Made by a program: the position numbers and the translations under genes. This document shows, piece by piece, positions 1 through 64,000 of a stretch of DNA of 64,000 nucleotides (positions are counted from its first letter, which is position 1; every line of letters begins with the position of its first letter). Source of the DNA: a virus. The DNA is taken from positions 1 to 64,000 of the IMG/VR virus record IMGVR_UViG_3300002026_000009. One strand, given 5' to 3'. The notes beneath the pieces were generated by a model that was not told where the DNA came from, did no database searches, and saw only the letters and a program-made list of their open reading frames with translations.

Positions 1-77
1 TTTGGCTGTATAATTCACACATGGCGCAGATGATCGGGTTTGCAGCCAAGGGCAGCGAAAAGAAAATAAAAAATCTT

Positions 78-106
78 TTCGCAAACTGCAAAAACTGTGC
101 TACAAT
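78..106 (+). promoter_or_regulatory. sigma70-type promoter TTCGCA-N17-TACAAT
   Basis: Hexamers read directly. Region 1-106 is a diverged copy of 1905-2011. Confidence 0.45.
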
Positions 107-132
107 GTAGCCACTGCAACGAAAGGTTCAAA

Positions 133-618
133 ATGATTACAGAAATTAACGTGTTTGACTGTGATGGTGTGTTGCTGGACTCTAGCCACCGCTATGCTAC
201 ACAAACGAGAGCAGACGGTGCAACTGTTATTGATCTGGCACACTGGATCGAAAATGAGCACAAAGCGTATGATGACGAACCATTGCCCACGGCATTGCGT
301 GAATATGCGGCAAGTTTGGCAAATCCTGCCGCGTACACAATTATCGCAACTGCCGCTGTAGTTTGTGACAATCGCATTAAATGCTTGCGTGATAAAATTG
401 GAATGCCTGATTTTATTATTGGTCGCAATGGTCGCAGTGATATTCGAGGCGGCGCAGAATTGAAAATTGCCGGATTGAATAAATTGCTGCAATTAAAGCA
501 ATTCCGCAATGCGCGAGTTAATATGACAATGTATGAAGATAATTTGTCATATCTCACGAAAATCTGCAAAGCATTTAATTGCCGTGGTGTATATATCCCT
601 TCAGTTCAGGGTCACTAA
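133..618 (+). CDS. HAD-superfamily phosphatase (possibly T5 Dmp-like 5'-deoxynucleotidase)
   Basis: ORF 97..618. HAD motif I FDCDGVLLD follows the Met at 133, with a GAAAGG RBS upstream. TAA stop. Confidence 0.6.
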   Translation: MITEINVFDCDGVLLDSSHRYATQTRADGATVIDLAHWIENEHKAYDDEPLPTALREYAASLANPAAYTIIATAAVVCDNRIKCLRDKIGMPDFIIGRNGRSDIRGGAELKIAGLNKLLQLKQFRNARVNMTMYEDNLSYLTKICKAFNCRGVYIPSVQGH

Positions 619-689
619 TTAAATAGGTTTGTTAATTGTCCTACACAATTAACTTGCGATTATCCGGCAATTCCGGTATATAAAGGAAA

Positions 690-3258: not shown

Positions 3259-3339
3259 GGGAAAAATTTTGCACTTGAAAAAATTTTCCAAATGAAATAT
3301 AATATTAAAAGTGGAAAAAATTATTTCGGAGGAAAAATA

Positions 3340-3996
3340 ATGAAGTATAAAAAATGGACGGATGAAGATTTTGCAGAATTAGCCAGGCTTAATGCACTAG
3401 GTAAAACTGCTAAAGAAATTGCAGACATATTGGGATGTAGTGATGAAACAATTAAAAGCTATAAAGTAAAACTGGGACTAAGTCGTAGATCAAATAGTAA
3501 CAGATTCGATTTTAATAAGTATAAGAATACCTTGGATGAATTAAGTATTACGGCGGTTGACTGTACATAGGTAAAAGGTAATAGCTTATTCAGCTGCATG
3601 AAGTGTGGGCTTGAGTGGAAAGCTAGATTATTTGATGTATGTTCTAGAAAACAGGAGTGTCCAGAATGTAAACCCAAGCACACGTCTAAAGCCGCTAATA
3701 CCTGGTTAGACTCTATTGGGATTACGCGCAGAGAAGTTAAAATACCTGGTACACAATACAAGGTTGACGGCTTAGGGTCAGATGGGGTTACAGTATACGA
3801 ATTTCTAGGAGACTACTGGCATGGTAATTTAGAGGTATTTGACTCAGAAGATGTAAATGCTGTAACCGGCGATACATATGGTACGTTATTTGATAGCACT
3901 GTTGAAAGGTTATTAGATATTAAATCTAGAGGGTACAAGGTAATTTACATATGGGAAAATGATTACCTTAAAGGTAATAAGCCAGAAGAGATGTGA
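3340..3996 (+). CDS. HTH + zinc-ribbon + PD-(D/E)XK-type putative homing endonuclease, one in-frame TAG (3568)
   Basis: ORFs 3292..3570 and 3598..3996 are in the same frame and are separated only by a TAG. GGAGG RBS before ATG 3340. Motifs CMKCG...CPEC and YEFLGDYWHGN. TGA stop. Confidence 0.6.
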
Positions 3997-18046: not shown

Positions 18047-18129
18047 GGAGTAGATGGAACAATGGCGTTCTAGCCGGCTGTAACCCGGTGGCCTCTGGCA
18101 GGTAAGTTCGATCCTTACCTACTCCACCA
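18047..18129 (+). tRNA. tRNA-Tyr (GTA)
   Basis: Acceptor GGAGTAG/CTACTCC, anticodon loop CTGTAAC, long variable arm, T loop TTCGATC, A73, CCA encoded. Confidence 0.85.
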
Positions 18130-18277
18130 ATTTTATTAGAAATCTTCTAGCAATAGACACTTGGGCATACTGGACGCAGTACATGAGGCTTGACAGCCTA
18201 CAAGTGGCCGATACGTAGACTAAAGCCCGGCAGGGTGATTAAGATGCGTAGTCGGGGGATTCCTAATAAGATTAGTC

Positions 18278-18361
18278 GGGAGAGTGGTGGAATGGCATAC
18301 ACAGGGCGCTTAAAACGCCCCGCCGCAAGGCATACGGGTTCGAATCCCGTCTCTCCTACCA
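18278..18361 (+). tRNA. tRNA-Leu (TAA)
   Basis: Class II. Anticodon arm GGGCG-CTTAAAA-CGCCC, long variable arm, T arm ACGGG-TTCGAAT-CCCGT, A73, CCA. Confidence 0.8.
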
Positions 18362-18366
18362 ATTAT

Positions 18367-18443
18367 GCGGATATGACGAAATAGGTAAACGTGTCACGCT
18401 TAGAACGTGAATTCTGGGGGTTCGAGTCCCTCTATCCGCACCA
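18367..18443 (+). tRNA. class I tRNA with anticodon TAG (formally Leu-CUA reader, identity uncertain)
   Basis: Perfect acceptor GCGGATA/TATCCGC, anticodon arm TCACG-CTTAGAA-CGTGA, 5-nt variable loop, A73, CCA. 77 nt. Confidence 0.7.
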
Positions 18444-18454
18444 AGTTTTATGCA

Positions 18455-18526
18455 GCAGTTAGTGTAGTGGAAGCACATGAGTCTGTGAAACTCATAGGAA
18501 CGGATCGTATCCGTACTGACTGCCCA
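18455..18526 (+). tRNA. tRNA-His (GTG)
   Basis: G-1 (18455) lies opposite C73. Acceptor CAGTTAG/CTGACTG, anticodon arm TGAGT-CTGTGAA-ACTCA, reduced D arm, T loop ATCGTAT, CCA. Confidence 0.75.
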
Positions 18527-18538
18527 AAGATAGTTAAT

Positions 18539-18613
18539 GGAGCATTCGTCTATCGGTTAGGACACCTGGTTTTCATCCAGATAAGAGGAGTTCGATTCTC
18601 CTATGCTCTTCCA
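18539..18613 (+). tRNA. tRNA-Glu (TTC)
   Basis: Acceptor GGAGCAT/ATGCTCT, anticodon loop TTTTCAT, T arm AGGAG-TTCGATT-CTCCT. Confidence 0.8.
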
Positions 18614-18642
18614 AATTTTTCAACAGCAACTAAAAGGCAAAC

Positions 18643-18771
18643 ATGAGCTACAATCGCGAACTGGAAACTGACAAGCAAGCTAAACAAACCTCGGACAAAA
18701 ATCTGAAGGCTGCAGCTAGTGAGCGACTGAAGAAAAACGCCGAGTGGAAAAAGCGTAATCAAGCTAAATAA
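18643..18771 (+). CDS. hypothetical small basic protein (42 aa)
   Basis: MSYNRELETDKQAKQ...KKRNQAK. Lies between tRNA genes. Confidence 0.3.
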   Translation: MSYNRELETDKQAKQTSDKNLKAAASERLKKNAEWKKRNQAK

Positions 18772-18778
18772 CCTACGT

Positions 18779-18873
18779 GCCACCATAGCTTAACGGTAAA
18801 GCTCCGGCCTTATACTCCGGCGATGGCTCTAGATTGGGGCATGATATAGGTTCGAATCCTATTGGTGGTACCA
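18779..18873 (+). tRNA. atypical tRNA, anticodon TAT (Ile-AUA type) with 25-nt variable insertion
   Basis: Acceptor GCCACCA/TGGTGGT, D arm GCTT-AACGGTA-AAGC, anticodon arm CCGGC-CTTATAC-TCCGG, extra hairpin at 18821-18845, T arm ATAGG-TTCGAAT-CCTAT, CCA. Confidence 0.55.
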
Positions 18874-18874
18874 A

Positions 18875-18985
18875 ATGAATAAACTAAAAACGCACTTGTT
18901 ACTAACAAGCATAATGTTATGCTGTATACTGTTTGCAGTGTGGTTCAACATCGTAGTGCTGTTTATTAGTTTTGTAAGTAATTAA
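18875..18985 (+). CDS. small membrane protein (36 aa)
   Basis: MNKLKTHLLLTSIMLCCILFAVWFNIVVLFISF. Confidence 0.3.
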   Translation: MNKLKTHLLLTSIMLCCILFAVWFNIVVLFISFVSN

Positions 18986-19061
18986 CGCGGGGTATGTCAG
19001 CGGCAGACGGCTGGGCTCATAACCCAGAGGTCGTGGGTTCGAGTCCCACCCACCGCAACCA
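18986..19061 (+). tRNA. tRNA-Met (CAT), initiator-like
   Basis: The 5' CGCGGGG and the anticodon arm CTGGG-CTCATAA-CCCAG carry three G:C pairs, as in fMet tRNAs. The 3' end is ...CGCAACCA. Confidence 0.75.
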
Positions 19062-19068
19062 AATAAAT

Positions 19069-19143
19069 GCATCGTTAGCTCAGAGGTAGAGTTCCTGATT
19101 TACATTCAGGCTGTCGGCAGTTCGATCCTGTCACGATGTACCA
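19069..19143 (+). tRNA. tRNA-Val (TAC)
   Basis: Acceptor GCATCGT/ACGATGT, anticodon arm CCTGA-TTTACAT-TCAGG, CCA. Confidence 0.85.
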
Positions 19144-19148
19144 AATAT

Positions 19149-19224
19149 CCGTCCGTGGTCTAATGGATAAGGCAAGGGACTTCTATTCCCTACGATATGG
19201 GTTCGACTCCTGTCGGGCGGGCCA
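19149..19224 (+). tRNA. tRNA-Arg (TCT)
   Basis: Acceptor CCGTCCG/CGGGCGG, anticodon arm AGGGA-CTTCTAT-TCCCT, G73, CCA. Confidence 0.85.
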
Positions 19225-19239
19225 ATAATTTAAAATACT

Positions 19240-19407
19240 ATGAACGTACTTGTTGTATCAAATCCAGAACTTGGTTGGGATTGTGTTATTGGTGTCTACG
19301 CTGACACACCACGCAATCGTGAACTACTGCAGTCCAAAGAAGAAAATGACGGGTATGTAATCACAGAGCGAGATCTAGAGCAGGACTACGAAGATTGTAC
19401 TGATTGA
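19240..19407 (+). CDS. hypothetical small acidic protein (55 aa)
   Basis: MNVLVVSNPELGWDCVIGVYAD... TGA stop. Confidence 0.4.
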   Translation: MNVLVVSNPELGWDCVIGVYADTPRNRELLQSKEENDGYVITERDLEQDYEDCTD

Positions 19408-19472
19408 TATTTGTAACTCAACTAACTTAAAGGAGAACATTATGCGATTGTGAACAACAACAGGAGCATAAT

Positions 19473-19832
19473 ATGTCTAGAACATACAAAGACAAAAAGT
19501 GGAAGCTACGTCACCCAGAAAATGAATATACATTTGGTGTCGAACGTGTAGCATATGAAGTACAGCGTAGAAACTGGAGCACAGGCGAACTGCTAGACGA
19601 GTACTCTACACGTTATGCATACTTTGATATTCCAGGTGCAAAAAAGAAAAAGCCTCGTCATGAGCATGGTGTGTGGAACTGGTGCAGGAATACGCCTAGT
19701 TGGTGGAATAAAATGACCAGTCATGTCCCAAAGCGTGCTAAGTGCCGTAATTGGGAAAAGACTCGTACGCTAGATAATCTTGACGAAACCTGTCCAGACT
19801 ACGGACGCAAGCCACACATTTACTACTATTGA
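19473..19832 (+). CDS. hypothetical basic protein
   Basis: ORF track entry. AGGAG RBS. TGA stop. Confidence 0.6.
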   Translation: MSRTYKDKKWKLRHPENEYTFGVERVAYEVQRRNWSTGELLDEYSTRYAYFDIPGAKKKKPRHEHGVWNWCRNTPSWWNKMTSHVPKRAKCRNWEKTRTLDNLDETCPDYGRKPHIYYY

Positions 19833-19842
19833 AAAAATTTAC

Positions 19843-19871
19843 TTGACTTTTGGCTGCATATGTACTATAAT
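19843..19871 (+). promoter_or_regulatory. promoter TTGACT-N17-TATAAT
   Basis: Hexamers read directly. Confidence 0.6.
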
Positions 19872-19901
19872 ATGTATGTGGTCAAAAATTATAGGAAAAA
19901 T

Positions 19902-20630
19902 ATGACAATAGGTATTTATAGGCTAATATTTAAAGGTACGGATAAAGTTTATATTGGTCAGTAGGTAAATATAAAGAATAGATATTCTGAGCACCTGCGT
20001 ACATTTAAAGAAGGAAGTGCATCTTGTAAACTGCAAGATGCATATAATTTATACGATATACCTAGCCTAGATATACTGTGTTAGTGTAATCTAACTGAGT
20101 TAGACTCACTAGAGAATGAGGCCATAGAACTTTTTGATAGTGCTAATAATGGGTTTAATACATTTACTCATGAAGGTGGGTCTATACGAAGTGCTGGTGG
20201 GCTAGACCACTGGAACTCGAAGTATCCTAAACGACTTATATTAAAAGTCTTTGCAGCTCTCATTAGATACAAAGACTTATCGTATGCTGCAATAGCTAGA
20301 AAGTTAAACACTTCTCCGTATTTAGTACACAATGTTGTATCTGGGAAGCATCATTTATGGTTGAAAGATTCATATCCAGGTAAATTTGCTATAATGTTAG
20401 AGCTTAAAGCCGGTAAAAAAGATAGAACTAAGAAAACAATAAGTACAGAATTAGGTAATATACCAGTACTTGTATCCCCATCAGGTGATTATTTCAAAGT
20501 ACCGAATATTCGACAGTTTTGTGTAGAGCATCCAGACTTTTGTAGTAACATAGATGCATCTAGATCGTCTTTAGGTAAAGTAATTAAAGGCACAAAGACT
20601 TCTCACAAAGGCTGGGTATTAGCCTCTTAA
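19902..20630 (+). CDS. GIY-YIG homing endonuclease, 2 in-frame TAG (19962, 20082)
   Basis: One frame reads MTIGIYRLIFKGTDKVYIGQ-TAG-VNIKNRYSEH...KGWVLAS, 243 codons with no TAA or TGA. The ORF track shows only the last third (20361..20630). Confidence 0.7.
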
Positions 20631-20638
20631 ATATTGTC

Positions 20639-20667
20639 TTGATTTTGTAAACCAAACCGTGTATAAT
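20639..20667 (+). promoter_or_regulatory. promoter TTGATT-N17-TATAAT
   Basis: Hexamers read directly. Confidence 0.55.
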
Positions 20668-20687
20668 TATTGTTTTAAAGGATAATT

Positions 20688-21647
20688 ATGCTCGGTTTCG
20701 CTTGTAAAATTAACAGTGCATACGATACAGCAGCTTCCGGGCTGAATATCAAGGGTACAACTCTTACATGGTTACGTGCTAACCCTGATAAAGCGTATAT
20801 CAAGCTATCTGACTTGTTGCGCGATAATCTCAAGGCATTAGAGGCTCAGATTGAGTTTATTGGTGCCCTGCCAAAGCAGCAGCGAATGTTTCGTATTACC
20901 AGTGACTTGCTTCCCGCATACACTACTGATGATTTTATGCCATTCTACTACCAAGATCATATCCAGCAAATACTGGAACATATACTTGGTCGTATTGGTG
21001 CTCGTGCTAGATAGTTAGGCATTCGCCTTTCAATGCATCCTGGCCAGTTCTGTGTATTAGCTAGCGATAATCCAGCGGTTGTAGAAAATTCTATTGCAGA
21101 GTTTGAGTATCACGCTGATATTATTCGTTGGCTAGGGTACGGTAAAACATTTCAAGACTTTAAGTGTAATATCCACATTGGTGGTAAACGTGGCCCTGCG
21201 GGACTGCGTGAAGCGTACTACCAGCTTAGTCAAACTGCACGTAACTGCATTACAGTTGAAAATCAGGAATTTACCTGGGGACTAGAGCATTGCCTAGAAT
21301 TGGCTGATATTATACCTACTGTATTCGATATTCACCACGACTGGATTTACAACGGCAAATATCGTACAGAAATTCCTCTAGACGTGCTAACTAGCTGGCG
21401 TGGGCTTCGTCCTACAATGCATGTTAGCTGTTCTAGAGTTCGTGAGCATGACGCAACGGCTATAGCTACCAAGCAAGCACTACGTGCTCATAGTGATTAC
21501 ATCTACGAGTCTGTGCTGGTAGACGAGCTACTGCCATGTTACCATGAACACTTTGATATAATGGTTGAGGCCAAAGAAAAGAATTTTGCTCAGCAACAGC
21601 TTGTCGATAGTTGGGTAGAAAAATTTGGATTTGACCCCAATGTTTGA
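20688..21647 (+). CDS. UV-damage endonuclease (UvdE family), 1 in-frame TAG (21012)
   Basis: ORFs 20688..21014 and 21033..21647 are in frame. Motifs FRITSDLLP, IRLSMHPGQF, NIHIGG, ENQE and DIHHD span the TAG. Confidence 0.75.
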
Positions 21648-21659
21648 TTACTGTATAAT
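21631..21659 (+). promoter_or_regulatory. promoter TTGACC-N17-TATAAT
   Basis: Hexamers read directly. Feeds the tRNA block at 21.8-22.4 kb. Confidence 0.55.
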
Positions 21660-21804
21660 TTATTTATAAATTGAAAGAGCGACTCATTATCCTTAAATGG
21701 TAGCGAGAAAGGCGCGTTTACTAGGATCGTAAAAACAACTAGACGGGCAGTGTATCAATGCTTAGTAATAATTTGATGCCGGTACCCATACGACAATGGG
21801 TTAT

Positions 21805-21880
21805 CTCTGGTTCGGTTAGCGGCTATACCTCTACGTTTGGGACGTAGCTTTCGTAGGTTCGAGTCCTACACCAGAGACCA
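21805..21880 (+). tRNA. tRNA-Pro (TGG)
   Basis: C1:G72 acceptor CTCTGGT/ACCAGAG, anticodon arm CTACG-TTTGGGA-CGTAG, CCA. Confidence 0.85.
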
Positions 21881-22061
21881 TAAGTAAATATCTTGCTAGT
21901 TCCATGTATTTGGAACCTTGCACTCCAGTGAAATAAGGGTACCCGGCCGGTATATCCCTAAAGCGGAGTAGTTCTAGTATAGCTAGCCTTTAGCGGGGTA
22001 GTGCAAAAGCTAGAGTATGCGTAATTTGACTACGTAGGCAGCAAACAGGATATTTAATTAT

Positions 22062-22136
22062 GGGCTATTAGTGCTAACGGGAACACGCCTGGTTTGCAAC
22101 CAGGAATTGACAGTTCGATCCTGTCATGGTCCACCA
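22062..22136 (+). tRNA. tRNA-Ala (TGC)
   Basis: G3:U70 acceptor GGGCTAT/ATGGTCC, anticodon arm CCTGG-TTTGCAA-CCAGG, CCA. Confidence 0.85.
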
Positions 22137-22331
22137 AAACCTACCTTAGGGTTCGTTGTCGCAACGGTTAGAGGCTAATACCTCAGGCGTCCGTGATCTA
22201 TATAGTCGTCACGTTAAACCTCTTTATGAGTGACCACAGCCGCCAAGCAGTGGGGTACAAAGGAACTATACGTATTATGTACGCGGTAGGAGCGAAATGC
22301 CTACGCTGGAGTCGTAACCAGCACTAATTCA

Positions 22332-22411
22332 GGAGGTAGGGACTGCACGGCGTGGTCGCCACACTGTCACTGTGGATATTCAGATGGGTTCAATTCCCAT
22401 TACCTTCGCCA
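22332..22411 (+). tRNA. tRNA-Asp (GTC)
   Basis: Acceptor GGAGGTA/TACCTTC, anticodon arm CCACA-CTGTCAC-TGTGG, G73, CCA. 8-nt variable loop. Confidence 0.8.
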
Positions 22412-23285: not shown

Positions 23286-23295
23286 AAAGAAAACG

Positions 23296-23626: not shown

Positions 23627-23628
23627 TT

Positions 23629-49599: not shown

Positions 49600-51403
49600 A
49601 TATAAACGACTACGTTGGAGTAACTGCTTCTCCTACGGCGAAAATAATACGCTAGACTTCAATACTTCACAGATTCTACAACTTGTTGGTAGAAACGGGC
49701 ACGGTAAAAGCTCAATTGCCCTTATTTTAGAAGAAGTCTTATTTAATAAGAACTCAAAAGGCGTAAAAAAGCAGCATATTATCAATCGTAATTCTAAGGC
49801 TAAGAACTATAGCATTGGACTGGACTTTGCTAAAGACGGCGTAGAGTACACTATTGAAGTAACTCGTGGTAGTACCCAGACCGTTGTTCTGCTACGCAAT
49901 GGCGAAGATATTTCTAGCCATACAGCTACACAGACTTTCAAGGATATCGAGGCATTAATAGGGTATGACCATAAAACTTTCAGTCAGATTGTATACCAAA
50001 GCTCTACAGCTAGCCTTGAGTTCCTTACTGCTACAGACACTGCGCGTAAGAAGTTTCTTATTGACTTGCTTAATTTGGGTAGATACACAACTGCTCTTGA
50101 AGTCATCAAGGCTAAAGCACAGGTTGTATCAAAGGAGGTTACAGTTCAGGAGACTAAGCTAAAGCAGGCTCAGGGCTGGTTAGCCAAATATATTGGGCGC
50201 GACTTACAGAAAAAATCTTTAGTCGAAGTTCCGACTCTGCCTGATAGTCTATATGCCGAAAGTGCGCGACTTGAAAAATCCATTCAAAACGTGGGTTCGG
50301 AAACGGCAAAGATTGAAAAGAATCTGACATATAAAAAGCTATTAGACGGGGTAGAATTATATCCACTTCCCGAAGAAACTTTTTCTGCCGCTGATTTGAA
50401 AGCCTTAGAAACTGCAGAAATTGGCGTGGCTGCTGAAATTGCACAAATTGATAAACAGCTAAAGCAATTGGCTGCTACAAAAGACAGGTGCCCTACTTGT
50501 GGACAAAGTCTTGGGGTAGATACTAGTCATATTGCTAATGAGGTTGCTAAGCTAAATCAAGAACGTAAACTACTTGTAGCAACAAAACCGGAACTAGCCG
50601 ATAAAATAGCTAAACTTAAAGCGGCTAAAGCAGCCATTGATCGTTCTAATGAAGCACAAGAAAAATACGAAAAGTATCATCAGTTATACGACCCTAAGCT
50701 GCCGCAGGTAGTGCCAGATACAACTGCACTAACCGCTGAGCTTGCAGCTGTTAATGCTAGCATTAAAAAACATCAGCAAGAAATAAAAGCCGCACAGGAT
50801 GCTAATAAAGCAGCTGAAGTTCATAATGCTCAAGTAGATGGCATTCTAGAGCAGATTAGTGAGTTTGAACTTGAACGGGATGTTGCTACGCGCTCCCTTA
50901 CAGAGTTAGTAAAACTATCTAGTAGCTATGCAGTACTAACAAAAGCGTTTAGTACCACAGGACTAGTAGCATACAAAATCGAATGTCTTGTTAAAGACTT
51001 GGAGAAAATTACAAATGAATACTTGGCAGAAATGGCAGATGGACGATTCCAGCTCTCTTTCGAGATATCACAATCGGACAAGCTCAACGTGGTCATTACC
51101 GACAACGGAACAGATATCGACATTGCAGCTCTTAGCACAGGCGAGCGTGCCAGGGTTAACGTTGCTACTTTGCTGGCTATCCGCCGGTTAATGCAGAACC
51201 TTAGCAATACTCGTACTAATTTGCTTATCTTAGATGAAACAATAGAAAATCTCGATGCAGATGGTAAAGAACGTTTGATAGAGATTCTGTTGAATGAGCC
51301 AGATTTAAACACAGTTCTTATTTCTCATAGCTTTACACACCCACTTATTGATCGTGTTAGCATTGTTAAAGAACGTAATATGTCGAGGATTGATCGTGGT
51401 TGA
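49592..51403 (+). CDS. SbcC/Rad50-like ATPase
   Basis: Walker A GRNGHGKSS, a long coiled coil with a CPTCGQ zinc hook, signature LSTGE and Walker B LILDE. Confidence 0.8.
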   Translation: MIEYKRLRWSNCFSYGENNTLDFNTSQILQLVGRNGHGKSSIALILEEVLFNKNSKGVKKQHIINRNSKAKNYSIGLDFAKDGVEYTIEVTRGSTQTVVLLRNGEDISSHTATQTFKDIEALIGYDHKTFSQIVYQSSTASLEFLTATDTARKKFLIDLLNLGRYTTALEVIKAKAQVVSKEVTVQETKLKQAQGWLAKYIGRDLQKKSLVEVPTLPDSLYAESARLEKSIQNVGSETAKIEKNLTYKKLLDGVELYPLPEETFSAADLKALETAEIGVAAEIAQIDKQLKQLAATKDRCPTCGQSLGVDTSHIANEVAKLNQERKLLVATKPELADKIAKLKAAKAAIDRSNEAQEKYEKYHQLYDPKLPQVVPDTTALTAELAAVNASIKKHQQEIKAAQDANKAAEVHNAQVDGILEQISEFELERDVATRSLTELVKLSSSYAVLTKAFSTTGLVAYKIECLVKDLEKITNEYLAEMADGRFQLSFEISQSDKLNVVITDNGTDIDIAALSTGERARVNVATLLAIRRLMQNLSNTRTNLLILDETIENLDADGKERLIEILLNEPDLNTVLISHSFTHPLIDRVSIVKERNMSRIDRG

Positions 51404-51590
51404 GTATAAAACATAGTATGAATGGTATCGTACTCTACAAAGTCCAGTAATATTAGACCCAGATGGTTGGGATAGAGCTAACTTTAAATACTCTTTCCAT
51501 GAGGAAGAAATAACTAAAGAAGAGTATCTACACAGACATAGTAGGTCTACTACCTTAGTTTATCCAGTAGAGGCGGAAAATCATGGTTGA
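51396..51590 (+). CDS. hypothetical small protein, 1 in-frame TAG (51414)
   Basis: GTG 51396 is the only possible start. There is no start codon downstream of the TAG. The stop forms ATGGTTGA with the next gene. Confidence 0.45.
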
Positions 51591-52035
51591 CCCACGCGCC
51601 AAAGGCGCCAGGGCAGAAACTGTAATTAGAGATGCACTACGCAAACATACAGGGCTGCAGTGGGAACGAGTACCGGGAAGTGGTGCTCTTGACCCTAAGC
51701 ATAAGCTAAAAGGAGACATTTATGTTCCTAATGCAAATAACCTGTACTGCGTGGAGGCAAAACATTATGCTGAGGATCATCTTACAAGTGCTGTGCTAAC
51801 AAGTAAGAATCCTCAGCTAATGCAGTTCTGGGAACAAACAGTTCGTGAGAGTTAGCAGGTCGATAAAGAACCGTTATTAATCTTTAAGCATGATCGTAGT
51901 AAGCTGTTTGTAGGATTTAAAGATTTCCCAAGTGGTAACTATAATTATATGTTTATACATCACTCAACACATGAGTTCTATGTAGCCTTGTTAGATGATT
52001 GGCTACAACACGAAAGCATAAAATTTACAACTTAA
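51583..52035 (+). CDS. PD-(D/E)XK nuclease, putative Holliday-junction resolvase, 1 in-frame TAG (51853)
   Basis: GDIYV...VEAKH motif. ORF 51583..51855 continues in frame to the TAA at 52033. Confidence 0.6.
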
Positions 52036-52090: not shown

Positions 52091-52111
52091 TGTTGCTTCT
52101 TGGGAGATTTT

Positions 52112-52810
52112 ATGCAAAAAATGGCAGGTATTTATAAGCTTTTATACAAAACTGGTCACTATTATATTGGTCAGAGCGTTAATTTAAGTAGTAGAAAATT
52201 AAATCACTATAAAATGTTAATGCTTAAAAAGCATCATAGCTATAAGATGCAGGAGCATTATGATACACACCAGGAGCTACCTGAATTCATAGTCGTTAAA
52301 TATTGCGATATCAATGATCTTAATGCTGAAGAATCATCCTTAATAAAGTTAGATGATCCATTATGCTTAAATGTAAAAGCCGGTGGAGACAATAATTACG
52401 GATATGAAGCTATAGGTGCTAAGTACCTAACAGCTGATATTGAAGTAGCATTTTTACTTTTGGTAAACAATCCTGGTATTTCACACAAAGAAGTTGCCGA
52501 TATCTCTGGTATAGATATTTCTACAGTACATGATATTAGTGCAGGTAGAAATAGAGTGTTCACGGAAATGAGTAAGATATATCCGGAACTATATGCGCAG
52601 TTGTTAAAACAAAAAGCCCCTAATACACGTGGCAAAACTACTATCATGCTGCAGCATGAAGATGGTAGACAAATTACCTTAATAAGTGGGCAATACTAGG
52701 ATTTTTGCAGAAACTATGGGGTTCAATCCTCTAACCTTTCCAAAGTTGTACAAGGTAAAAGAACATCTACAATGGGGTGGAAACTTATAAATAAATATGA
52801 AAACTTTTAA
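52112..52810 (+). CDS. GIY-YIG homing endonuclease, 1 in-frame TAG (52697)
   Basis: MAGIYKLLYKTGHYYIGQSVNLSSRKLNH... After the TAG comes the typical C-terminus ...GKRTSTMGWKLI. Confidence 0.7.
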
Positions 52811-56805: not shown

Positions 56806-56827
56806 AGTTTTTTAAATGGAGACTATT

Positions 56828-57727
56828 ATGGAAATAAATTCGGGAATATACATATTATACTTTGAATGCGACGATGGTATGTACTACGTAGGCAAATCAT
56901 CAAATATATCAGCTAGATACTATGAGCATTGTAGAAAACTAATGTACGGGTCACATATTAACAAAGCGCTTAGTCGTGGATATAATAAATATGGTGAAGT
57001 ACCTACATTATTTAGGTTAGAAGAAGTATAGGTAGAAAAGCAATCTGAAAGAGAAATTTATTGGATAGCTACATTAGATACGTATAAGAATGGAATGAAC
57101 GCTACTTTAGGTGGTGATGATCTAGGATATGGAGCAAATACTCCTAGTTCACTATATGAAGAAGATACATATATAAAAATACTGTAGGAATTGGCTAATA
57201 CAGATAAGTCTTTACGTGATATATAGATTGATTTAGATGTATCTTATTAGGTTGTTCAAAAAATATCTAATTTCTCAGAACATACCTGGTTAATAGAAAA
57301 GTATCCAGAACTAGCTGCTAAAGTTAAAGAAAAATGTGGTAATAGAAAAGGATATATTGCAGACTCCTAGGTATATGAAAATATTATGAGACTTAGAGCC
57401 TATACAGATATTTCAAACGTAGAGATAGCCGAAAAATGCGGAGTTAAATTATCTGTAGTACGCAATATTATATATGCACAAAATCATCTCTACTTAAGGG
57501 ATAAATTTCCTACTGAGTGGAACTTAATGTATGCGAAACGTGGTACTATACTAAAAGGTAAGAAAGATACTGAGGAATATCCTAATATCAAAGACAAGGA
57601 TGGTAATGTATATAAGATATAGGGTTCGTGCAAGGCATTTAGTGAAGCACATGGATTAGACTATACACATCTACATAAAGTACTAAGAGGTAAAGCTCTA
57701 AGTCATAGGGGCTGGACTCTTGCGTAA
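56828..57727 (+). CDS. GIY-YIG homing endonuclease, 6 in-frame TAG
   Basis: One frame of 300 codons reads SGIYILYFECDDGMYYVGKSSNISARYYEH...HRGWTLA, with six TAG and no TAA or TGA. The ORF track shows only two fragments. Confidence 0.65.
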
Positions 57728-57769: not shown

Positions 57770-58495
57770 TTAATAATGACGGTAGGCTTTTAATACCTTT
57801 TTACATACACCGCTACGAATACAATCATCATCAGTAAATTGTATTACTTCTACTTCGTCTAGATGGCGAAGTTTACCAATGGCATCTTCTAACCCTGTGG
57901 CATCAATTCTATCACGTTGACCAACGTCACCATTAATCATCATTTTAGTATTATTACCAATACGTGTTAGCAACAGCTTCATTTGCATTGGCGTTGCCTA
58001 TTGCATCTCATCTGCCAATATAATGCAGTCTTTAAAGGACCTGCCGCGCATGAATGCTAGAGGGACTGGTTCGATTGTACCAATCTTAAGACAGTATTCA
58101 ACAAAACTCTTACCCAATAGTTCGTTTAAAGTCTCCATATATGGAACTAGATAGGGTAACATCTTGCCTTCAACAAGATCTCCTGGTAAGAATCCTAGCT
58201 CTTCGCCGCAAGCTTCTACAGCTGGGCGAGTAAGGATTATCTTATTTACTCGTCTATAATATAGTTGCTCTGCTGCATAGTGTGTACTAACATACGTTTT
58301 ACCAACCCCCGCATCACCTAGTGCGAATACAATATCCTTAGTATTTAGTGCATCTATATAATCTTGTTGACGATATGTCTGCGCTTCTAGTTTAGGAAAT
58401 TTCTGAGCCGGTTTGCGGTCTGCAGGAGATTGATAGCCCATATCTTGTACCATCTGTGTAGTACGACGAGCTTTTTTACCAGAGGAAGTAGCCAT
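57770..58495 (-). CDS. phoH: PhoH-like ATPase, 1 in-frame TAG (57998-58000)
   Basis: ORFs 57998..58495 and 57770..57988 are in frame. Walker A GDAGVGKT. ...ILADEMQ-TAG-ATPMQMKLLLTRIGNN matches the family pattern DEAQN..QMK..LTR.G. Confidence 0.8.
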
Positions 58496-58503: not shown

Positions 58504-59057
58504 TTAGTTATTTAAAAGAGGTACGTATTTATGTATACGTACATTTAGTACATCATGTACATGATGATTGTTAATATCCCTAGCACTGCGATTAGCATAT
58601 AGTACTTTACGGGATTTAACGTTATATAGTTCAACGTTGTTAAACCAATATCTGTGATTGCAAGAGGCGCTAAGGTTGCACGCTACGCGTGAACGCCGCA
58701 CATCACTAACACCTCCATTATACGCGCTATCTGCAAAAGCTAGCGGCTCGTGCGTGTCTAGGAATAATGAGTAATTGGCTCGACTCATTAGTATCATAGT
58801 GCGTATTTGAAGATCTGGACGACTATAGATAGTACTCCAGTTTAGCTCACCTAACTCTTGTGGCCAACGACGACGCGCATCTTGCAGCGAATCAAATCGT
58901 AGGCTTCCATCTTCTCGCCAGGCTCTTGTAAGCTGCCCAAGGCCCGCACCCTCTTCTTTTGAAGTTTTAAGCCGCGATTGTGGGTTCCAACATTTGGAGT
59001 GCTTAAGGTGCTGGCAGCTTTCATGTTCGATTAGACTGGCGAGATATGCTTTTTTGG
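58504..59057 (-). CDS. lytic transglycosylase (SLT) domain, reached by -1 shift at A_AAA_AAG
   Basis: This frame reads KKAYLASLIEHES...GLGQLT...AYNGG, and it has no start codon of its own before Met 58797. Confidence 0.6.
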
Positions 59058-59450
59058 TACGTTAGGCCAGTATGTGGCTACCTCACTGGCAAGTACTGGT
59101 AGGTGTATTTTAGCTTGTGCCGGAATATACGTCTTAACATCTTGAGCCCGCGCCGATGGACCAAATAATCCGTAGATAGCCATAACGAATAGGCACATGC
59201 CTAAGAAGGTAATAGCCTACCCAATAGACTACTTCTTGGCCTCGTCGTACAGGTCGCCCATATCTACATACGGGAAAAGTAGTTTACGCAGCCAATGTCC
59301 AGCTAGAACTACCAGGATTGGTGTAGTTAGGTAGATTAAGAATTCCTACGTAATTGCCCCGGCTGTAGGGTCTGTTACATATTTAACAACCAATAGTAGT
59401 AGTGTAACTACTAATAGGGATAGGTTACGTTTATTGAAGTAAGGTTTCAT
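59031..59450 (-). CDS. 3-TM membrane protein (holin-like), 3 in-frame TAG, zero-frame product
   Basis: MKPYFNKRNLSLLVVTLLLLVV... with TAGs at 59346, 59229 and 59217. Ends PKKHISPV-TAA. ATGA-coupled to the upstream ORF. Confidence 0.5.
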
Positions 59451-59617
59451 CTTCTGATTTGTCCTATTAGCTGATCTAGTACATTGTCTATACGATCTAG
59501 ACGTTTCTACATACTTTCAATATGCTACTCTAGATCACGAGCACGCTACTCTAAGTGCGCAATATGTTCTCGTGCATTTGGTGTTAAACCTAGTACACGT
59601 AGTATCCAATTTTTCAT
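59447..59617 (-). CDS. small coiled-coil protein, 3 in-frame TAG
   Basis: ATGA overlaps at both ends. MKNWILRVLGLTPNAREHIAHLE-TAG-RARDLE-TAG-HIESM-TAG-KRLDRIDNVLDQLIGQIRR. Confidence 0.5.
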
Positions 59618-59871: not shown

Positions 59872-60224
59872 TTGTTAGCTCTTTCTATAATCTTGCGGCG
59901 CGCTTCCAATAATTGCTCACTTGCTACACAGTCACCTTCACGAACCACTACTAGTGGCCCACTTTCTTTTAGTGCTGCGCGTATTTGTTGAGTATCTTGT
60001 ATTAATGCATTAATTTCTTTTGTTAGATCAACAGATCTTAGGCTTAGTGCTTTATTTACTACTGCAGTTTGGTTGTCTAAGGCTGTACGATATTCTGCAA
60101 CTTGTTTTGTATACTGCTCTGCTGCTGCTAATTCACCTGCTCTATATCCCGTAGTAGACCCTAAATAGTATACAAGGGCTAGTATTGCAGCTAGTGCTAC
60201 CACTATAATTATATTTTGTTTCAT
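59868..60224 (-). CDS. i-spanin (Rz-like)
   Basis: N-terminal TM segment IIIVVALAAILALVYYL followed by a coiled coil. Confidence 0.7.
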   Translation of the reverse strand: MKQNIIIVVALAAILALVYYLGSTTGYRAGELAAAEQYTKQVAEYRTALDNQTAVVNKALSLRSVDLTKEINALIQDTQQIRAALKESGPLVVVREGDCVASEQLLEARRKIIERANK

Positions 60225-60262
60225 TTTAGCCCTAAGAATTTAGGTACGGTTAATAGTAGCTT

Positions 60263-60715
60263 CTAGATAAATCCACCTATTTTACTTTTATCTGTCATAC
60301 CACTAATAGGCTGTTCCCAAACAGCGGCAGCTACCTCAGCTGGAGTAATAGAACTGCCACTAGTAGCAATACCTTGTGCTTGTACAGGTACTGTTAGTTT
60401 TACAAGAACGTTGTAGTTACCTACAGTAGGAACGACTGGGTCACCACCGCCATCTACGAATAAATTGCCGGTAATATTTAATACTTGGGTAGCTTCCATT
60501 GGTCGTACTCGCCAGCCGTTTGCTAGAAAGTAGTATGGTGGAATTGATAGTCCACTGCCCAAGCCATCGCCACCTACAGAAGTAAAGGCAGGCAGATACT
60601 TTAGGTTATCTGCCTGACTAGCCCAGTCGACCCAAGTAGCATATATACTCTGTGCAGTAACATTAGTACTATCTAGTATAATTAGCTTATTAACGGGGTC
60701 GATTGTATATGCCAT
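60263..60715 (-). CDS. tail-fibre-associated structural protein (may extend to 60221 through TAG)
   Basis: The ORF ends in TAG. Reading through adds 13 codons and ends in a TGA that overlaps the i-spanin ATG. Confidence 0.55.
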   Translation of the reverse strand: MAYTIDPVNKLIILDSTNVTAQSIYATWVDWASQADNLKYLPAFTSVGGDGLGSGLSIPPYYFLANGWRVRPMEATQVLNITGNLFVDGGGDPVVPTVGNYNVLVKLTVPVQAQGIATSGSSITPAEVAAAVWEQPISGMTDKSKIGGFI

Positions 60716-60718
60716 ATA

Positions 60719-62083
60719 TTATGCGTAAACGCGATCTTGTTCTGCAACCAAGGATAGAGAGATTGCTTTACTCTTTGTTAGCGTACCAGTTGCGACTGCA
60801 AACTTACCTGTACCAGGTTTTACACCAATTAGTGTTACTGCACGATCTGTACCAGGCGTCGCACCGCCCTGAGTATTACCATCGTAGTCGTACGTAAATG
60901 ATATTGAACCACTAGAGATAGTACCTGCGATAGGTGTGCCGCTTGCGTCGTTGACGGTAATTGCACCGCTTTCGCCGTAGTCATTGCCAGCACCTGGAGG
61001 AGCTGTAAACATAAGGCGATAACTTGAACCTGCGCCAACCAGCACGCTGTTAAAGGTCATAGTACCGGCTGCACTGTATGGATATGTACGTGTTACACCG
61101 TTTTGGTCTTTAAACTCAATACGGTTGGTATCAGCTGAAAGTAGGTTTTCAACGAACACACCGGTTGTTGTTTGTAGGGTATCACCAACGAAGCCTAATA
61201 GGGCTGCTGCAGTTTTACCGTTTACGGTACCGGCTCCTGCGTCTATATCGCTATCTTGACGTAGTAAGTATTGAACCTTAGTATAGATTTGTTCTAGCGT
61301 AGCGTTATTACCATTAATAACAACACGGAATGGATAACTACCACCACCAATTGTTTTGTTCTGGTCACTACCATAGTACGTAATTGTAATACCACTATAA
61401 GGGGCACCACTCATTGCAGCATCATTAGCTTGAATCTTTAAGTCATCTTCGTTAGAAAGTAGCAAGTTAACAATGTTAGCACCGGTCGACGTTTTACCCG
61501 TATCGGCTAGAACAGAGTCTTTGTATTTTTTACCGTATTCACGAACGAAGCCTTTAAAGTAACTACGCTTATCAAAGTTACCATTGCTGGCATCCCCAAA
61601 AACTTGAATACCTTCGTTACATTGGTCTGTAAAGGTAAAGTTAATTGGCGCGTCTGTTGAAGCACGCTGGTAATACAGCTGAGCACCGGTTGACACACCA
61701 CCCAGGCCTACAATACCTACGTATTGACGTTGTAGTACGCCCGCTGCGGAGAATTCACTCCAGCCACCATCGCGTAACATTTGACGAGTAGCATCGGCGT
61801 TAAATGTCCAACCACTAAAAGTTGAACCATCAGTACCAATTTGGAACTGACCAGATAACGCGTCGATTGCGTATGCAGGGAATGGGCTATCTTGATATGT
61901 TGAGGTAGCCCACAGGTCCACCAATTTAGAGTATAGAGCCTGCCAGGTTACACCATCTTTCGCTATAAGACCGTTAGTTGTAGAACCGTCGGCGCTTGCT
62001 AGCAATTGGATAGTCTTGGCTGTCTCGTTAATTACTAGGTTTGTGCCAACTACCAGTTGGCTTTTACTTGTTAGTTTTGCCAT
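60719..62083 (-). CDS. tail fibre / structural protein
   Basis: 454 aa, rich in Gly, Thr, Ser, Asn and Ala. GGAG RBS. Confidence 0.6.
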   Translation of the reverse strand: MAKLTSKSQLVVGTNLVINETAKTIQLLASADGSTTNGLIAKDGVTWQALYSKLVDLWATSTYQDSPFPAYAIDALSGQFQIGTDGSTFSGWTFNADATRQMLRDGGWSEFSAAGVLQRQYVGIVGLGGVSTGAQLYYQRASTDAPINFTFTDQCNEGIQVFGDASNGNFDKRSYFKGFVREYGKKYKDSVLADTGKTSTGANIVNLLLSNEDDLKIQANDAAMSGAPYSGITITYYGSDQNKTIGGGSYPFRVVINGNNATLEQIYTKVQYLLRQDSDIDAGAGTVNGKTAAALLGFVGDTLQTTTGVFVENLLSADTNRIEFKDQNGVTRTYPYSAAGTMTFNSVLVGAGSSYRLMFTAPPGAGNDYGESGAITVNDASGTPIAGTISSGSISFTYDYDGNTQGGATPGTDRAVTLIGVKPGTGKFAVATGTLTKSKAISLSLVAEQDRVYA

Positions 62084-62148
62084 GTTTAGGCTCCATAGTT
62101 ACGGTCGATTGTTTGAGCTACTGGTAGGCTAGCATTTGTAGTACCTAG

Positions 62149-64000
62149 CTAGTAGTTGCGAATGTATAGTGGTACATATCCTGGCTTGATAACACCGATA
62201 TCTACCGGCTGTGCAGTTTCATATTCGTACACCCAACTAGAACCAGCATAATTATCCACTGATGCTATAATATTTGTTGTCCCAGCTTGTAGAATGACAA
62301 CATCAGAACCAGATACCAATCCAGTCAATGTTAGCTTAACTGTGTCTAATGGATAACTGTTATCAGTGTGAGCTGCGTAGTTAGACCAGCCGTTGAATCT
62401 AATAACAGTGATCGCAGTGGCAATTGCTGTTACACAAGTAACTTTTACCTTGAATCTAGTTCCTGCTGGATTTGGGGTTTCATCCGGAAGATGATTGAAG
62501 TAAACAATACCCGACGCAGTACCGGTATTAGCTCTAGTCAGTGTGACTGTGGTTCCGACTACTGATACAACTCTATTACGCTGAGCGATGTTAGTACCAC
62601 CGTACAACCAATCCCCGGGTGAAATACCAGTTGTATTAGCGATAGTAATAGTAAATGCACCGTTAGCACCTGTGTTTACGGTTTTGACTCTAGACAGGTT
62701 CTTGAATGTACCACTAAACCCTGAGCCAGTATCAATATCGTATTCAAGTAAGAAGTTAGATAAAGTGCTACCAGCTAATGTTGGAGCTAAGTATTCATCG
62801 AACCCAGTGAACCCTTTGGCAAAGTAAGGCATTTCCCATACAGCAGATGTTCCTACTACACCCATCAAAACCCCACCACTGGAGTTAAACTTAGGTGTTC
62901 CAGATAACACTGTATAGTAAGCTGCTGTGTCTGTTGTGGGCTCGTTCATCCGTAGAGTAATGTTACCCGTGCCTCTAGAGAACGTGGTCATGAAGTGATG
63001 ACCATAAACCGAAGCTTGCCCAGATACACCGGGAATACCGCCGAAACCTTTTAGTTGCGCATTGAGGTTAGCTGGATTGATTAGTTCAATACCAAAAGTA
63101 TTGAGAGCATTGTCATTTTGCTTGTAAACGTTTTCGTATGTTACTCCAGTATCAGAGTTAATGAACGTTGTTACTGTGCTTCTAACCCGGTCTACGTAGC
63201 AGTTCTGTAATCTGTAGTTAGAGCAGTTACCGCCAGTAACAAACAATCCACCCATGCCCATGGTATTAGGATTCCAACTTCCACACTTCAATGGATTGGT
63301 TTTTGTACCTAGATTTCTGAATGTTACATTATTTGCTCCACCTCCAATACGAGCAGCAGTGCTAGATGGATGGCAGTTAGGTATAGTATCATTCATGCCG
63401 AATGTCAAACCATCAACAACTACATCTGATGATCTAGTATCAATGTTGATAGCAGAATATCCACCTGTTGCATTTGTGTATCCAGTGAATCTATCACAAT
63501 AGTCTGTATTGTTGATCCGCACTTTGTTACTCGTAGTAACTAAGATCTGACTGTTGAATGTCTTATTATTGTTTAAGGTTATGTTGTCACATGAAGATAA
63601 GTTAAACGAATATCCGGAACTTCTGGCGTATTGAATAATACCAAACTCACAATCATTGAACGTCAAATTATTACAGAAGTTGACGTTCACAGCGTGGTCT
63701 GATGTTCCCGGAGTATTGCCACGTTTCAACGTGGCATTGGTGATAGTACCACCTGAGAAATTAGAAGTAAGCAACAGTGTGTTAATGTCTAAGCTACCAT
63801 ACATCCCTACGCCGACATTATCTAACGTCATAGCAGTAGCACATTCAGAAATTTGCAATGTATCCATGTGCCAATTGTTTATAAGACGTACACTATATGC
63901 TTGACCGAACGTAGCTGCCCAGTTATTGTTGCAGAAGAATTCTAGATCAATAGCACCCGCAGAGGTTGTTGTAAACTCAGGTCTAGTACCTTGAGTACCG
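62149..64000 (-). CDS. tailspike-like beta-helix protein (5' end outside window)
   Basis: Repeated N-x-T/N-N motifs typical of right-handed beta-helices. The frame stays open upstream of Met 63867 to the window edge. It ends in TAG, and readthrough would add 20 codons (TAG plus 19 sense codons) before the TAA at 62086. Confidence 0.6.
   Translation of the reverse strand, partial: GTQGTRPEFTTTSAGAIDLEFFCNNNWAATFGQAYSVRLINNWHMDTLQISECATAMTLDNVGVGMYGSLDINTLLLTSNFSGGTITNATLKRGNTPGTSDHAVNVNFCNNLTFNDCEFGIIQYARSSGYSFNLSSCDNITLNNNKTFNSQILVTTSNKVRINNTDYCDRFTGYTNATGGYSAINIDTRSSDVVVDGLTFGMNDTIPNCHPSSTAARIGGGANNVTFRNLGTKTNPLKCGSWNPNTMGMGGLFVTGGNCSNYRLQNCYVDRVRSTVTTFINSDTGVTYENVYKQNDNALNTFGIELINPANLNAQLKGFGGIPGVSGQASVYGHHFMTTFSRGTGNITLRMNEPTTDTAAYYTVLSGTPKFNSSGGVLMGVVGTSAVWEMPYFAKGFTGFDEYLAPTLAGSTLSNFLLEYDIDTGSGFSGTFKNLSRVKTVNTGANGAFTITIANTTGISPGDWLYGGTNIAQRNRVVSVVGTTVTLTRANTGTASGIVYFNHLPDETPNPAGTRFKVKVTCVTAIATAITVIRFNGWSNYAAHTDNSYPLDTVKLTLTGLVSGSDVVILQAGTTNIIASVDNYAGSSWVYEYETAQPVDIGVIKPGYVPLYIRNY

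Follow-up and report, generated by a model that had tools for sequence, protein, structure and literature searches.

In-frame TAG codons of a T5-like phage are very probably read as serine through the phage's own suppressor tRNA

The stretch of DNA analysed here (the window) comprises 64,000 nucleotides (nt), positions 1 to 64,000 of the IMG/VR virus record IMGVR_UViG_3300002026_000009, and belongs to a T5-like (Demerecviridae-type) phage in which the amber codon TAG is, almost certainly, a sense codon. An earlier note on this DNA had claimed that TAG is sense throughout the window and never a terminator, and that claim is now backed by homologous proteins, by a phage tRNA with the anticodon CUA, by two relatives which share the trait and by other relatives which lack such a tRNA and stop at TAG. 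The kind of tRNA and the residues found in homologues further suggest that UAG is very probably read as serine, by means of the phage's own suppressor tRNA.

Genes were re-called twice, with TAA and TGA as the sole stops and then with the standard code. With TAG as sense, 36 in-frame TAGs were found in 16 of the 89 called genes (18%), with no TAA or TGA interruption and no frameshift in these genes, while the genes themselves were terminated by TAA (54) or TGA (35) and never by TAG. This is slightly above the 34 TAGs in 14 genes claimed earlier, all of which were recovered at their positions and with the same numbers per gene (1, 2, 1, 10, 1, 2, 1 and 1, then 1, 1, 6, 1, 3 and 3, in the order listed below). 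The earlier note gave minus-strand TAGs by their low coordinate, so that the codon at 57998-58000 appears there as 57998. It had also held that no other coding sequence (CDS) ends in TAG, as is the case for all 89 called genes, and had left two minus-strand open reading frames (ORFs), at 60263 and 62149, as formally ending in TAG while running on to a later stop; the running on held good but the TAG ends did not, because homologues continue through both sites, bringing the true total to 36 TAGs in 16 genes. These homologues were found via the neighbouring gene at 60719-62083: in more than 60 IMG/VR loci the alignment to the 593-amino-acid tail-fibre-like protein continues past its TAG as far as a conserved C-terminus (YIRNY-x-L...PVAQ..DRNY), and in about seven the alignment to the 164-amino-acid protein likewise passes its TAG and reaches another (GGxI-x-KLL...GLK). 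A tblastn search with 60221-60715 against cultured phages matched the N-terminal half only.

Under the standard code, ORFs that end in TAG and reach a coding score of 4 or more are without exception the N-terminal parts of TAG-containing genes, and single Pfam domains cross TAGs in UvdE, the ClpP-like protease, PDDEXK_15, PhoH and GIY-YIG proteins. The alignment to homologues that the earlier note had proposed as a check likewise gave proteins that span the TAGs, for example in PhoH, the ClpP-like protease, the GIY-YIG endonucleases and the tail proteins. Two smaller observations of that note also stand, namely that CDS 51396..51590 has no possible start downstream of its TAG (its sole start-like codon is the GTG at codon 1, the TAG being codon 7) and that CDS 59447..59617 is coupled to its neighbours by ATGA overlaps, which are present at both ends. 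Out of frame, the same genes contain 1134 TAA, 858 TAG and 877 TGA triplets, and the chance that all 36 interruptions would be TAG if stops were random is approximately 0.3^36; exclusively TAG interruptions, where off-frame TAA and TGA are so common, rule out decay as their source. In relatives, TAG terminates 20 of 324 genes, compared to none of the 89 in the window (P = 0.003). The TAG-bearing genes are as follows.

3292..3996, plus strand: helix-turn-helix and zinc-finger nuclease-like protein (a PD-(D/E)XK endonuclease in the earlier note), 1 TAG (3568)
19860..20630, plus strand: GIY-YIG homing endonuclease, 2 TAGs (19962, 20082), the first within the YIGQ-S motif
20688..21647, plus strand: UvdE UV endonuclease, 1 TAG (21012) at codon 109, Pfam UvdE covering residues 34-274
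22488..23213, plus strand: GIY-YIG homing endonuclease between tRNA-Asp and the suppressor tRNA, 10 TAGs (22521, 22683, 22860, 22875, 22890, 22926, 23007, 23046, 23118, 23136)
27506..27733, plus strand: small conserved gene, 1 TAG (27608), a site spanned by the homologues in three relatives (L120, L121, L122)
28167..28793, plus strand: ClpP-like protease, 2 TAGs (28359, 28479), Pfam CLP_protease covering residues 53-178
47412..47816, plus strand: small gene, 1 TAG (47529) at codon 40, PHROG 4258 covering residues 40-128 and so beginning at the TAG codon
51396..51590, plus strand: small gene, 1 TAG (51414) at codon 7, crossed by PHROG 11725 (residues 5-55)
51583..52035, plus strand: PDDEXK_15 / RusA-like resolvase, homologue of T5 D14, 1 TAG (51853)
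52100..52810, plus strand: GIY-YIG homing endonuclease, 1 TAG (52697)
56816..57727, plus strand: GIY-YIG homing endonuclease, 6 TAGs (57029, 57185, 57224, 57248, 57368, 57620)
57770..58495, minus strand: PhoH, 1 TAG (57998-58000) in DEMQ-TAG-ATPMQMK
59031..59450, minus strand: holin-like membrane protein of the lysis cassette, 3 TAGs (minus-strand first bases 59348, 59231, 59219)
59447..59617, minus strand: 56-amino-acid coiled-coil gene of the lysis cassette, 3 TAGs (59548, 59527, 59509), ATGA overlaps at both ends
60221..60715, minus strand: tail-module protein, TAG at codon 151 of 164 (60263-60265), read through to the conserved C-terminus KLL...GLK
62086..63867, minus strand: tail-fibre-like protein, TAG at codon 573 of 593 (62149-62151), read through to the conserved C-terminus PVAQ..DRNY

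A tRNA able to read UAG is encoded within the tRNA array of the window, which also holds a paralogous tRNA-Ser(GCU) at 27406-27492.

18047..30579, plus strand: tRNA array of 26 genes called by ARAGORN, covering all 20 amino acids
23199..23285, plus strand: suppressor tRNA with anticodon CUA called by ARAGORN, 87 nt, class II, CCA end encoded

The suppressor tRNA scores 48 bits against the Rfam tRNA model (gathering score 29) and folds as a cloverleaf with a long variable arm that contains a 5-bp helix, its acceptor stem being GGAGUAG/CUACUCC and its discriminator G73. From sequence and fold it has G73, G1:C72, G2:C71, A3:U70 and C11:G24, which we take to be the E. coli (bacterial) tRNA-Ser identity set; the tRNA-Leu and tRNA-Tyr of the window, by comparison, have A73. 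The suppressor hardly differs from the window's tRNA-Ser(GCU) in its variable arm, the best match among the tRNAs compared is T5 tRNA-Ser3(GCU) at 69% identity, with which the D-arm GCATAACGGTATTGCAG is shared without change, and there is no likeness to the window's tRNA-Gln. Seryl-tRNA synthetase (SerRS) does not read the anticodon; its recognition elements are G73, the acceptor stem and the long variable arm. Since SerRS ignores the anticodon and the body of the suppressor is of the Ser type, charging with serine would be expected, and the tRNA is thus predicted to be aminoacylated by the SerRS of the host. T5 tRNA-Ser1 or tRNA-Ser3, when given an amber anticodon, is an effective amber suppressor (note in RefSeq NC_005859).

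The last 15 nt of the 10-TAG endonuclease gene (23199-23213) overlap the 5' end of the suppressor tRNA, so that its last five codons and its stop lie inside the tRNA. We may speculate that, if the two are co-transcribed, cleavage by RNase P would strip the stop codon from the endonuclease transcript and leave a non-stop mRNA.

Pattern searches for further copies of this tRNA gave no match for the D-arm plus anticodon in IMG/VR and none for the variable arm in the JGI metagenomes, while a search with the anticodon stem returned a single IMG/VR phage with a tRNA(CUA), which is unrelated (L026, IMGVR_UViG_3300028805_000183, G+C 37.6%). At 89 nt, the tRNA(CUA) of this phage (5784-5872) has G73 and a long variable arm, and structural-looking genes of the phage contain up to 8 TAGs in frame; possibly this is a further amber suppressor of class II, from a different lineage. 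Within the window, six of the tRNAs called by ARAGORN, including both Ser-type ones, were missed by a default Rfam run, and a tRNA-like sequence at 24812-24885 on the plus strand (Rfam 32.3 bits) was without an ARAGORN call.

The residues that occupy the TAG sites in homologues were then considered. At the PhoH site serine is found in five of five close relatives (71-74% identity) and, across 116 homologues, serine occurs 80 times, asparagine 36 times and glutamine not at all. TAG codon 65 of the ClpP-like protease aligns with the serine of INSPGG (serine in four of four relatives; serine 5, glycine 1 and threonine 1 when more homologues are included), and in the YIGQ-TAG motif of the GIY-YIG endonuclease every homologue has serine. 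The tail-fibre site is more mixed (alanine 17, threonine 13, serine 6, glutamine 4). Log-odds summed over the aligned columns came to +6.0 to +9.0 bits for serine, -2.5 to -6.9 for alanine and -6.7 to -17.7 for glutamine, and serine ranked first at every threshold tried, by approximately 10 bits over alanine and 14-22 over glutamine. By themselves the log-odds would make a moderate case for serine, and jointly with the Ser-type tRNA they would make a strong one. As for the codons of relatives at the TAG sites, a single step separates only 13 of 179 aligned codons from TAG, the relatives being too diverged for ancestry to be read from this.

Two relatives share the trait. An ENA scaffold (L122), whose TROVE protein is 75% identical to that of the window, has an 88-nt tRNA(CUA) directly after tRNA-Asp, which is orthologous to that of the window, as it lies at the same site with the same ORF downstream; the two differ by compensating changes in the acceptor and T stems but have an identical anticodon loop, CUCUAAA. 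About three in-frame TAGs were found in 20 kb of this scaffold. Its tRNA-Asp and suppressor are separated by 6 nt without an insert, where the window has the 10-TAG GIY-YIG gene, and it is in the lineage of the window that suppressor and homing endonuclease adjoin as one unit. The second relative, a Logan assembly (L119) whose PhoH is 92% identical as protein and 73% as DNA, has 25 TAGs in frame within 4.7 kb, distributed over 9 genes that encode tail proteins, both spanins, the small lysis protein, the holin-like protein and PhoH. In this independent assembly the PhoH TAG of the window recurs at the same site and another lies at RGR-S-F, a position occupied by serine in 109 of 116 homologues, and each of several tail genes contains 4-6 TAGs, which speaks for efficient suppression.

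Other relatives lack the tRNA. None of ten related IMG/VR tRNA regions (L009-L014, L016-L019) contains a tRNA with a CUA anticodon, nor does L120 have one at the syntenic site, and among the genes that TAG terminates in relatives without the tRNA are that for ribonucleotide reductase in L003 and those for GIY-YIG proteins in L001 and L005. The homologue of the 6-TAG endonuclease (56816..57727) in L001 and L002, at 51% identity, has no in-frame TAG and is terminated by TAG. An 80-nt tRNA that ARAGORN labelled 'CTA' directly after the tRNA-Asp of L015 (12438-12517), at the place of the suppressor in the window and in L122, is doubtful, being of unrelated sequence and odd shape, with a 6-bp anticodon stem, and was not relied upon. 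The trait is real, heritable and tied to the tRNA, and it is patchy among close relatives, as has also been described for other recoded phages (10.1101/2021.08.26.457843).

TAG is far from evenly spread over the genes of the window. The five homing-endonuclease-type genes (G+C 33-35%, compared to 41% for the window) hold 20 TAGs in 1,270 codons (1.6%), the holin-like and 56-amino-acid genes of the lysis cassette hold 6 in 195 codons (3.1%), and all other genes together hold 10 in 14,209 codons (0.07%). This amounts to an enrichment of approximately 20- to 45-fold in the homing endonucleases and the two lysis genes (Fisher test against the remaining genes, p = 2e-15 and p = 4e-8 respectively). 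The two TAG-rich lysis genes are flanked by the spanins (59614-60224) on one side and by an endolysin-like ORF (58504-59061) on the other. Once the endonucleases are set aside, 9 of the remaining 16 TAGs fall within 57770-64000, where the window ends in lysis and tail genes; recoded codons are concentrated in late, lysis or structural genes, most structural genes lying outside the window. The same bias has been described in other, unrelated recoded phages of the gut, where it affects lysis-cassette genes, a neighbouring tail gene and a homing endonuclease of an intron, and for which Borges et al. proposed that recoding blocks such proteins until the code is switched (10.1101/2021.08.26.457843). 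The skewed distribution in the window may likewise be regulatory. A neutral alternative is possible, in which TAG is simply near its compositional expectation in AT-rich, weakly constrained endonucleases from which TAA and TGA are still purged.

A second case of amber recoding in the same family was available for comparison. The Aeromonas phages AhSzq-1 and AhSzw-1 (Shenzhenvirus, Demerecviridae) were listed as using code 15, TAG = glutamine, by Cook et al. 2024 (PMC11210395). In AhSzq-1 (MG676224; L024/L025) the genes for replication and structure contain numerous in-frame TAGs, and a 75-nt tRNA(CUA) (L025 12795-12869) shares G3:U70 and A73 with the phage's own tRNA-Ala. Log-odds from 26 aligned TAG sites were +19.3 bits for alanine, -3.0 for serine and -22.5 for glutamine; the residues were tallied against T5 and pVp-1 loci, and the tally resolved to alanine after more T5 sequence had been added. 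AhSzq-1 thus appears to read TAG as alanine, and not by code 15. The two phages are alike in family, in having many in-frame TAGs and a tRNA(CUA) within the array, and in the apparent origin of that tRNA from one whose synthetase is blind to the anticodon, but the AhSzq-1 tRNA has alanine identity features and recoding there extends throughout replication and structural genes, and the two recodings are separate events.

Taken as a whole, the explanation that we consider likely for the window is that serine is inserted through the suppressor tRNA and that the genome has become adapted to this. The phage would have dropped UAG from its set of stop codons, and a paralogue of the phage tRNA-Ser family with a CUA anticodon would act as the decoder, which the SerRS of the host would charge with serine and which would insert serine at UAG in competition with the host release factor 1 (RF1). 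Adaptation of the genome would be seen in the loss of every TAG terminator and in the retention of TAG by conserved genes only at rare sites that tolerate serine, with many TAGs in selfish or timing-sensitive genes such as those for the GIY-YIG endonucleases, the holin-like protein, the small lysis protein and the tail proteins. These proteins would not be made before the tRNA was expressed, and the yield of the 10-TAG gene would be a small fraction of that otherwise expected, which may suit an endonuclease. More tentatively, and with rather less conviction than doubt, we suggest that T5-like phages may have reassigned UAG at least twice, to serine here and to alanine in AhSzq-1, through an anticodon change in a resident tRNA whose synthetase is anticodon-blind; UAG = serine would then be an undescribed phage code, mistranslated as glutamine, and mobile endonucleases would possibly be spreading or enforcing the code change.

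It could instead be argued that TAG is still mainly a stop and that the tRNA provides low-level read-through which attenuates a few genes, a matter of suppression and not of a change of code. TAG occurs in only 16 of 89 genes and mostly once in each, very low expression is plausible for the homing endonucleases that are richest in it, and scans of nearly all window proteins against Pfam and PHROG gave no RF1 inhibitor or antagonist. Classical E. coli amber suppressors that insert serine are also only partly efficient. Set against this, the complete lack of TAG terminators, when relatives without the tRNA do stop at TAG, fits read-through strong enough for counter-selection, TAGs interrupt the conserved PhoH, ClpP-like protease, UvdE and resolvase genes and precede the conserved C-termini of tail proteins, and the tail genes of L119 each contain 4-6 of them; attenuation of this kind is therefore unlikely.

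A residue other than serine or glutamine is more unlikely still. The tail-fibre homologues, in which alanine and threonine outnumber serine, and the apparent alanine reading of AhSzq-1 would favour one, and ARAGORN labels the tRNA 'Pyl'. The suppressor has A3:U70 and not the alanine-defining G3:U70 that is present in the suppressor of AhSzq-1, however, and threonyl-tRNA synthetase reads the anticodon, which speaks against threonine. As regards pyrrolysine, the variable loop of PylT is very short compared to the long arm found here, no pyl genes (pylS, pylBCD) are among the annotated proteins of the window, and 'Pyl' is the default ARAGORN label for every tRNA with a CUA anticodon.

Glutamine, the reading of code 15 that is known from crAss-like and Lak phages and is applied by automatic gene callers, is a shade less probable again. 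In its favour, the PhoH proteins of the window (P0001) and of L119 (P0002) carry glutamine at every TAG in a public protein collection, and the only Demerecviridae flagged by Cook et al. 2024 (PMC11210395) are given as code 15. Glutamine occurs in none of the 116 homologues at the PhoH site, its log-odds were -7 to -18 bits compared to +6 to +9 for serine, and the suppressor is a class II tRNA with G73, unlike the tRNA-Gln of the window. Moreover, glutaminyl-tRNA synthetase, which reads the anticodon, rejects tRNAs that have a long arm. The glutamines in P0001 and P0002 are the product of a code-15 gene call and, if the assignment to serine is right, both records are wrong at their TAG residues; the recoding is detectable by existing tools, but the residue that they assign would be wrong.

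It is scarcely credible that the interruptions mark pseudogenes or split genes, or that the TAGs arose as errors of sequencing or assembly, for although homing endonucleases often decay (nothing else specific favours it), all 36 interruptions are TAG with no frameshift where off-frame TAA and TGA are as common, the same PhoH TAG recurs in an independently assembled sequence whose nucleotide identity is 73%, the matching tRNA is present and conserved, and the operon overlaps are intact.

Several points nevertheless weigh against the reading of UAG as serine in a phage adapted to it. Many TAG sites align with glutamic acid, alanine, threonine, tyrosine or histidine in homologues, as would be expected at variable positions, and the case for serine, being made from sequence, depends upon some five conserved sites and the tRNA; the residue inserted and the efficiency of suppression are both predictions. 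Efficient reading of several TAGs in a single structural gene, as in L119, would have to prevail over the host RF1, and the Pfam and PHROG scans mentioned above found no release factor or aminoacyl-tRNA synthetase either; whatever secures such efficiency may lie outside the window. The trait is patchy in that L120, which lacks the tRNA, has the TROVE protein closest to that of the window (88% identical) among the relatives whose surrounding DNA was fetched. All gene, TAG and terminator counts come from the 64-kb window of a contig of approximately 100 kb, and the genetic code of the host was taken as standard. Look-ups of exact proteins gave no record for P0001 or for the 572-amino-acid tail fragment, and the sole sequence found to encode a protein of the window was a 6.3-kb Logan contig from SRR931349.

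The assignment of the window (G+C 41%, phage-like) to the T5-like phages follows from its set of replication and nucleotide-metabolism genes together with the large tRNA array. The DNA polymerase is of family A (PolA) and is 51% identical to those of Vibrio phage pVp-1 and its relatives, and other T5-like genes encode a D5-like regulator, a DnaB-like helicase, a primase, a D11-like SSB, a two-part NAD-dependent ligase, a D12/D13-like SbcCD pair and a D14-like resolvase. Also encoded are a flap endonuclease, a dUTPase, a class II ribonucleotide reductase, PhoH, the ClpP-like protease and ThyX. No cultured phage was close at the DNA level in a megablast search of 20 kb of the window against cultured phages.

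Some further features of the window were noted. A group I intron at 43706-44920 on the plus strand splits the DNA polymerase gene within the motif AKAIN|FGILYG (Rfam RF00028, 47.4 bits for 43706-44025 and 29.3 bits for 44768-44920, gathering score 50), and its ORF at 43983-44888 encodes a 301-amino-acid endonuclease-like protein without a single TAG. In the middle of the tRNA array, at 25622-26932 on the plus strand, lies the gene for the TROVE/Ro60-like protein, which has a vWA domain and is 46-91% identical across all of the relatives examined. A phage transfer-messenger RNA (tmRNA) at 16683-17046 on the plus strand scores 123 bits with the Rfam permuted tmRNA model and 108 bits with the beta-proteobacterial tmRNA model; it was missed by ARAGORN, which called permuted tmRNAs in four relatives (L009, L010, L013, L014), whose tags are ANDxxxALAA or variants such as ANDTQFALVA and ANDESFRIAA. 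As relatives have it as well, the tmRNA is a trait of the family with no tie to recoding. The three-gene tail module at 60221-63867 on the minus strand has homologues in more than 80 IMG/VR contigs (L029-L115) of very different sizes, at up to 78% identity, and also in genome bins labelled Betaproteobacteria, Casimicrobium and Rhizobiaceae, and has the look of a host-recognition module that is widely exchanged. The match to the beta-proteobacterial tmRNA model and the tail-module homologues in Betaproteobacteria bins are weak clues to a proteobacterial, non-gut host.

Recoding of stop codons by phages with suppressor tRNAs is established, and TAG = glutamine has been validated by proteomics (PMC9523058). 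The phage of the window resembles the amber-recoded gut phages (crAss-like and Lak; 10.1101/2021.08.26.457843, PMC9523058) in having in-frame TAGs, relatives with the standard code and its own tRNA(CUA), in that the recoded stop is a rare terminator in relatives (approximately 6% of genes) and close relatives differ in code, and in the concentration of TAG in lysis and tail genes and a homing endonuclease. It differs from them in that the residue would be serine and not glutamine, with a class II, Ser-type paralogue of its own tRNA-Ser as the suppressor, and in belonging to a T5-like lineage where recoding is sparse (18% of genes) and no release factor or synthetase gene was seen nearby. Serine is also inserted at UAG by a tRNA-Ser body with a CUA anticodon, and with no new enzyme, in the case of supD-type E. 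coli suppressors and of T5 tRNA-Ser1 and tRNA-Ser3 with amber anticodons, but these are laboratory mutants or constructs in genomes that keep TAG as a stop, whereas the tRNA of the window is natural and conserved and TAG terminators have been purged.

The placing of an endonuclease between tRNAs recalls the HNH genes hegA-D of T5, even to the overlap with the tRNA (15 nt here, 14 nt for hegC and tRNA-Ser2), although the endonuclease of the window is GIY-YIG and not HNH and, having 10 TAGs, would need the abutting tRNA for its own translation. T4 SegB is another free-standing homing endonuclease from a phage tRNA region. Outside the phages, the green alga Scotinosphaera is reported to use UAG = serine in its nuclear code (as cited in PMC11687900), where UAA is likewise kept as a stop, in a eukaryotic nuclear genome of unrelated lineage and termination machinery. 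One survey of phage Sup-CUA tRNAs predicted the isotypes Gln, Trp, Ile and Tyr, and Ser was absent (PMC10879173). We found no description in the literature of UAG = serine in a phage or bacterium, or of recoded T5-like phages, most subscription journals being beyond our reach, and an earlier report is possible.

If true, the reading of UAG as serine would be a bacteriophage genetic code that has not yet been described. Pipelines which offer only TAG = glutamine for amber recoding would then place the wrong residue at every TAG here, and AhSzq-1 has apparently been mis-annotated in the same way, suggesting that inference of the amino acid should be joined to the calling of recoding. Because synthetases of the SerRS and alanyl-tRNA synthetase type ignore the anticodon, this would be an easy route, in which tRNAs for serine and alanine may become suppressors by an anticodon change alone and phage tRNA arrays would serve as raw material for changes of code. 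The bias of TAG towards endonuclease, lysis and tail genes echoes that of unrelated gut phages and strengthens the idea that recoding delays or limits the production of dangerous proteins. As T5-like phages are highly tractable and AhSzq-1 is in culture, they may offer a system in which this regulatory hypothesis could be addressed.

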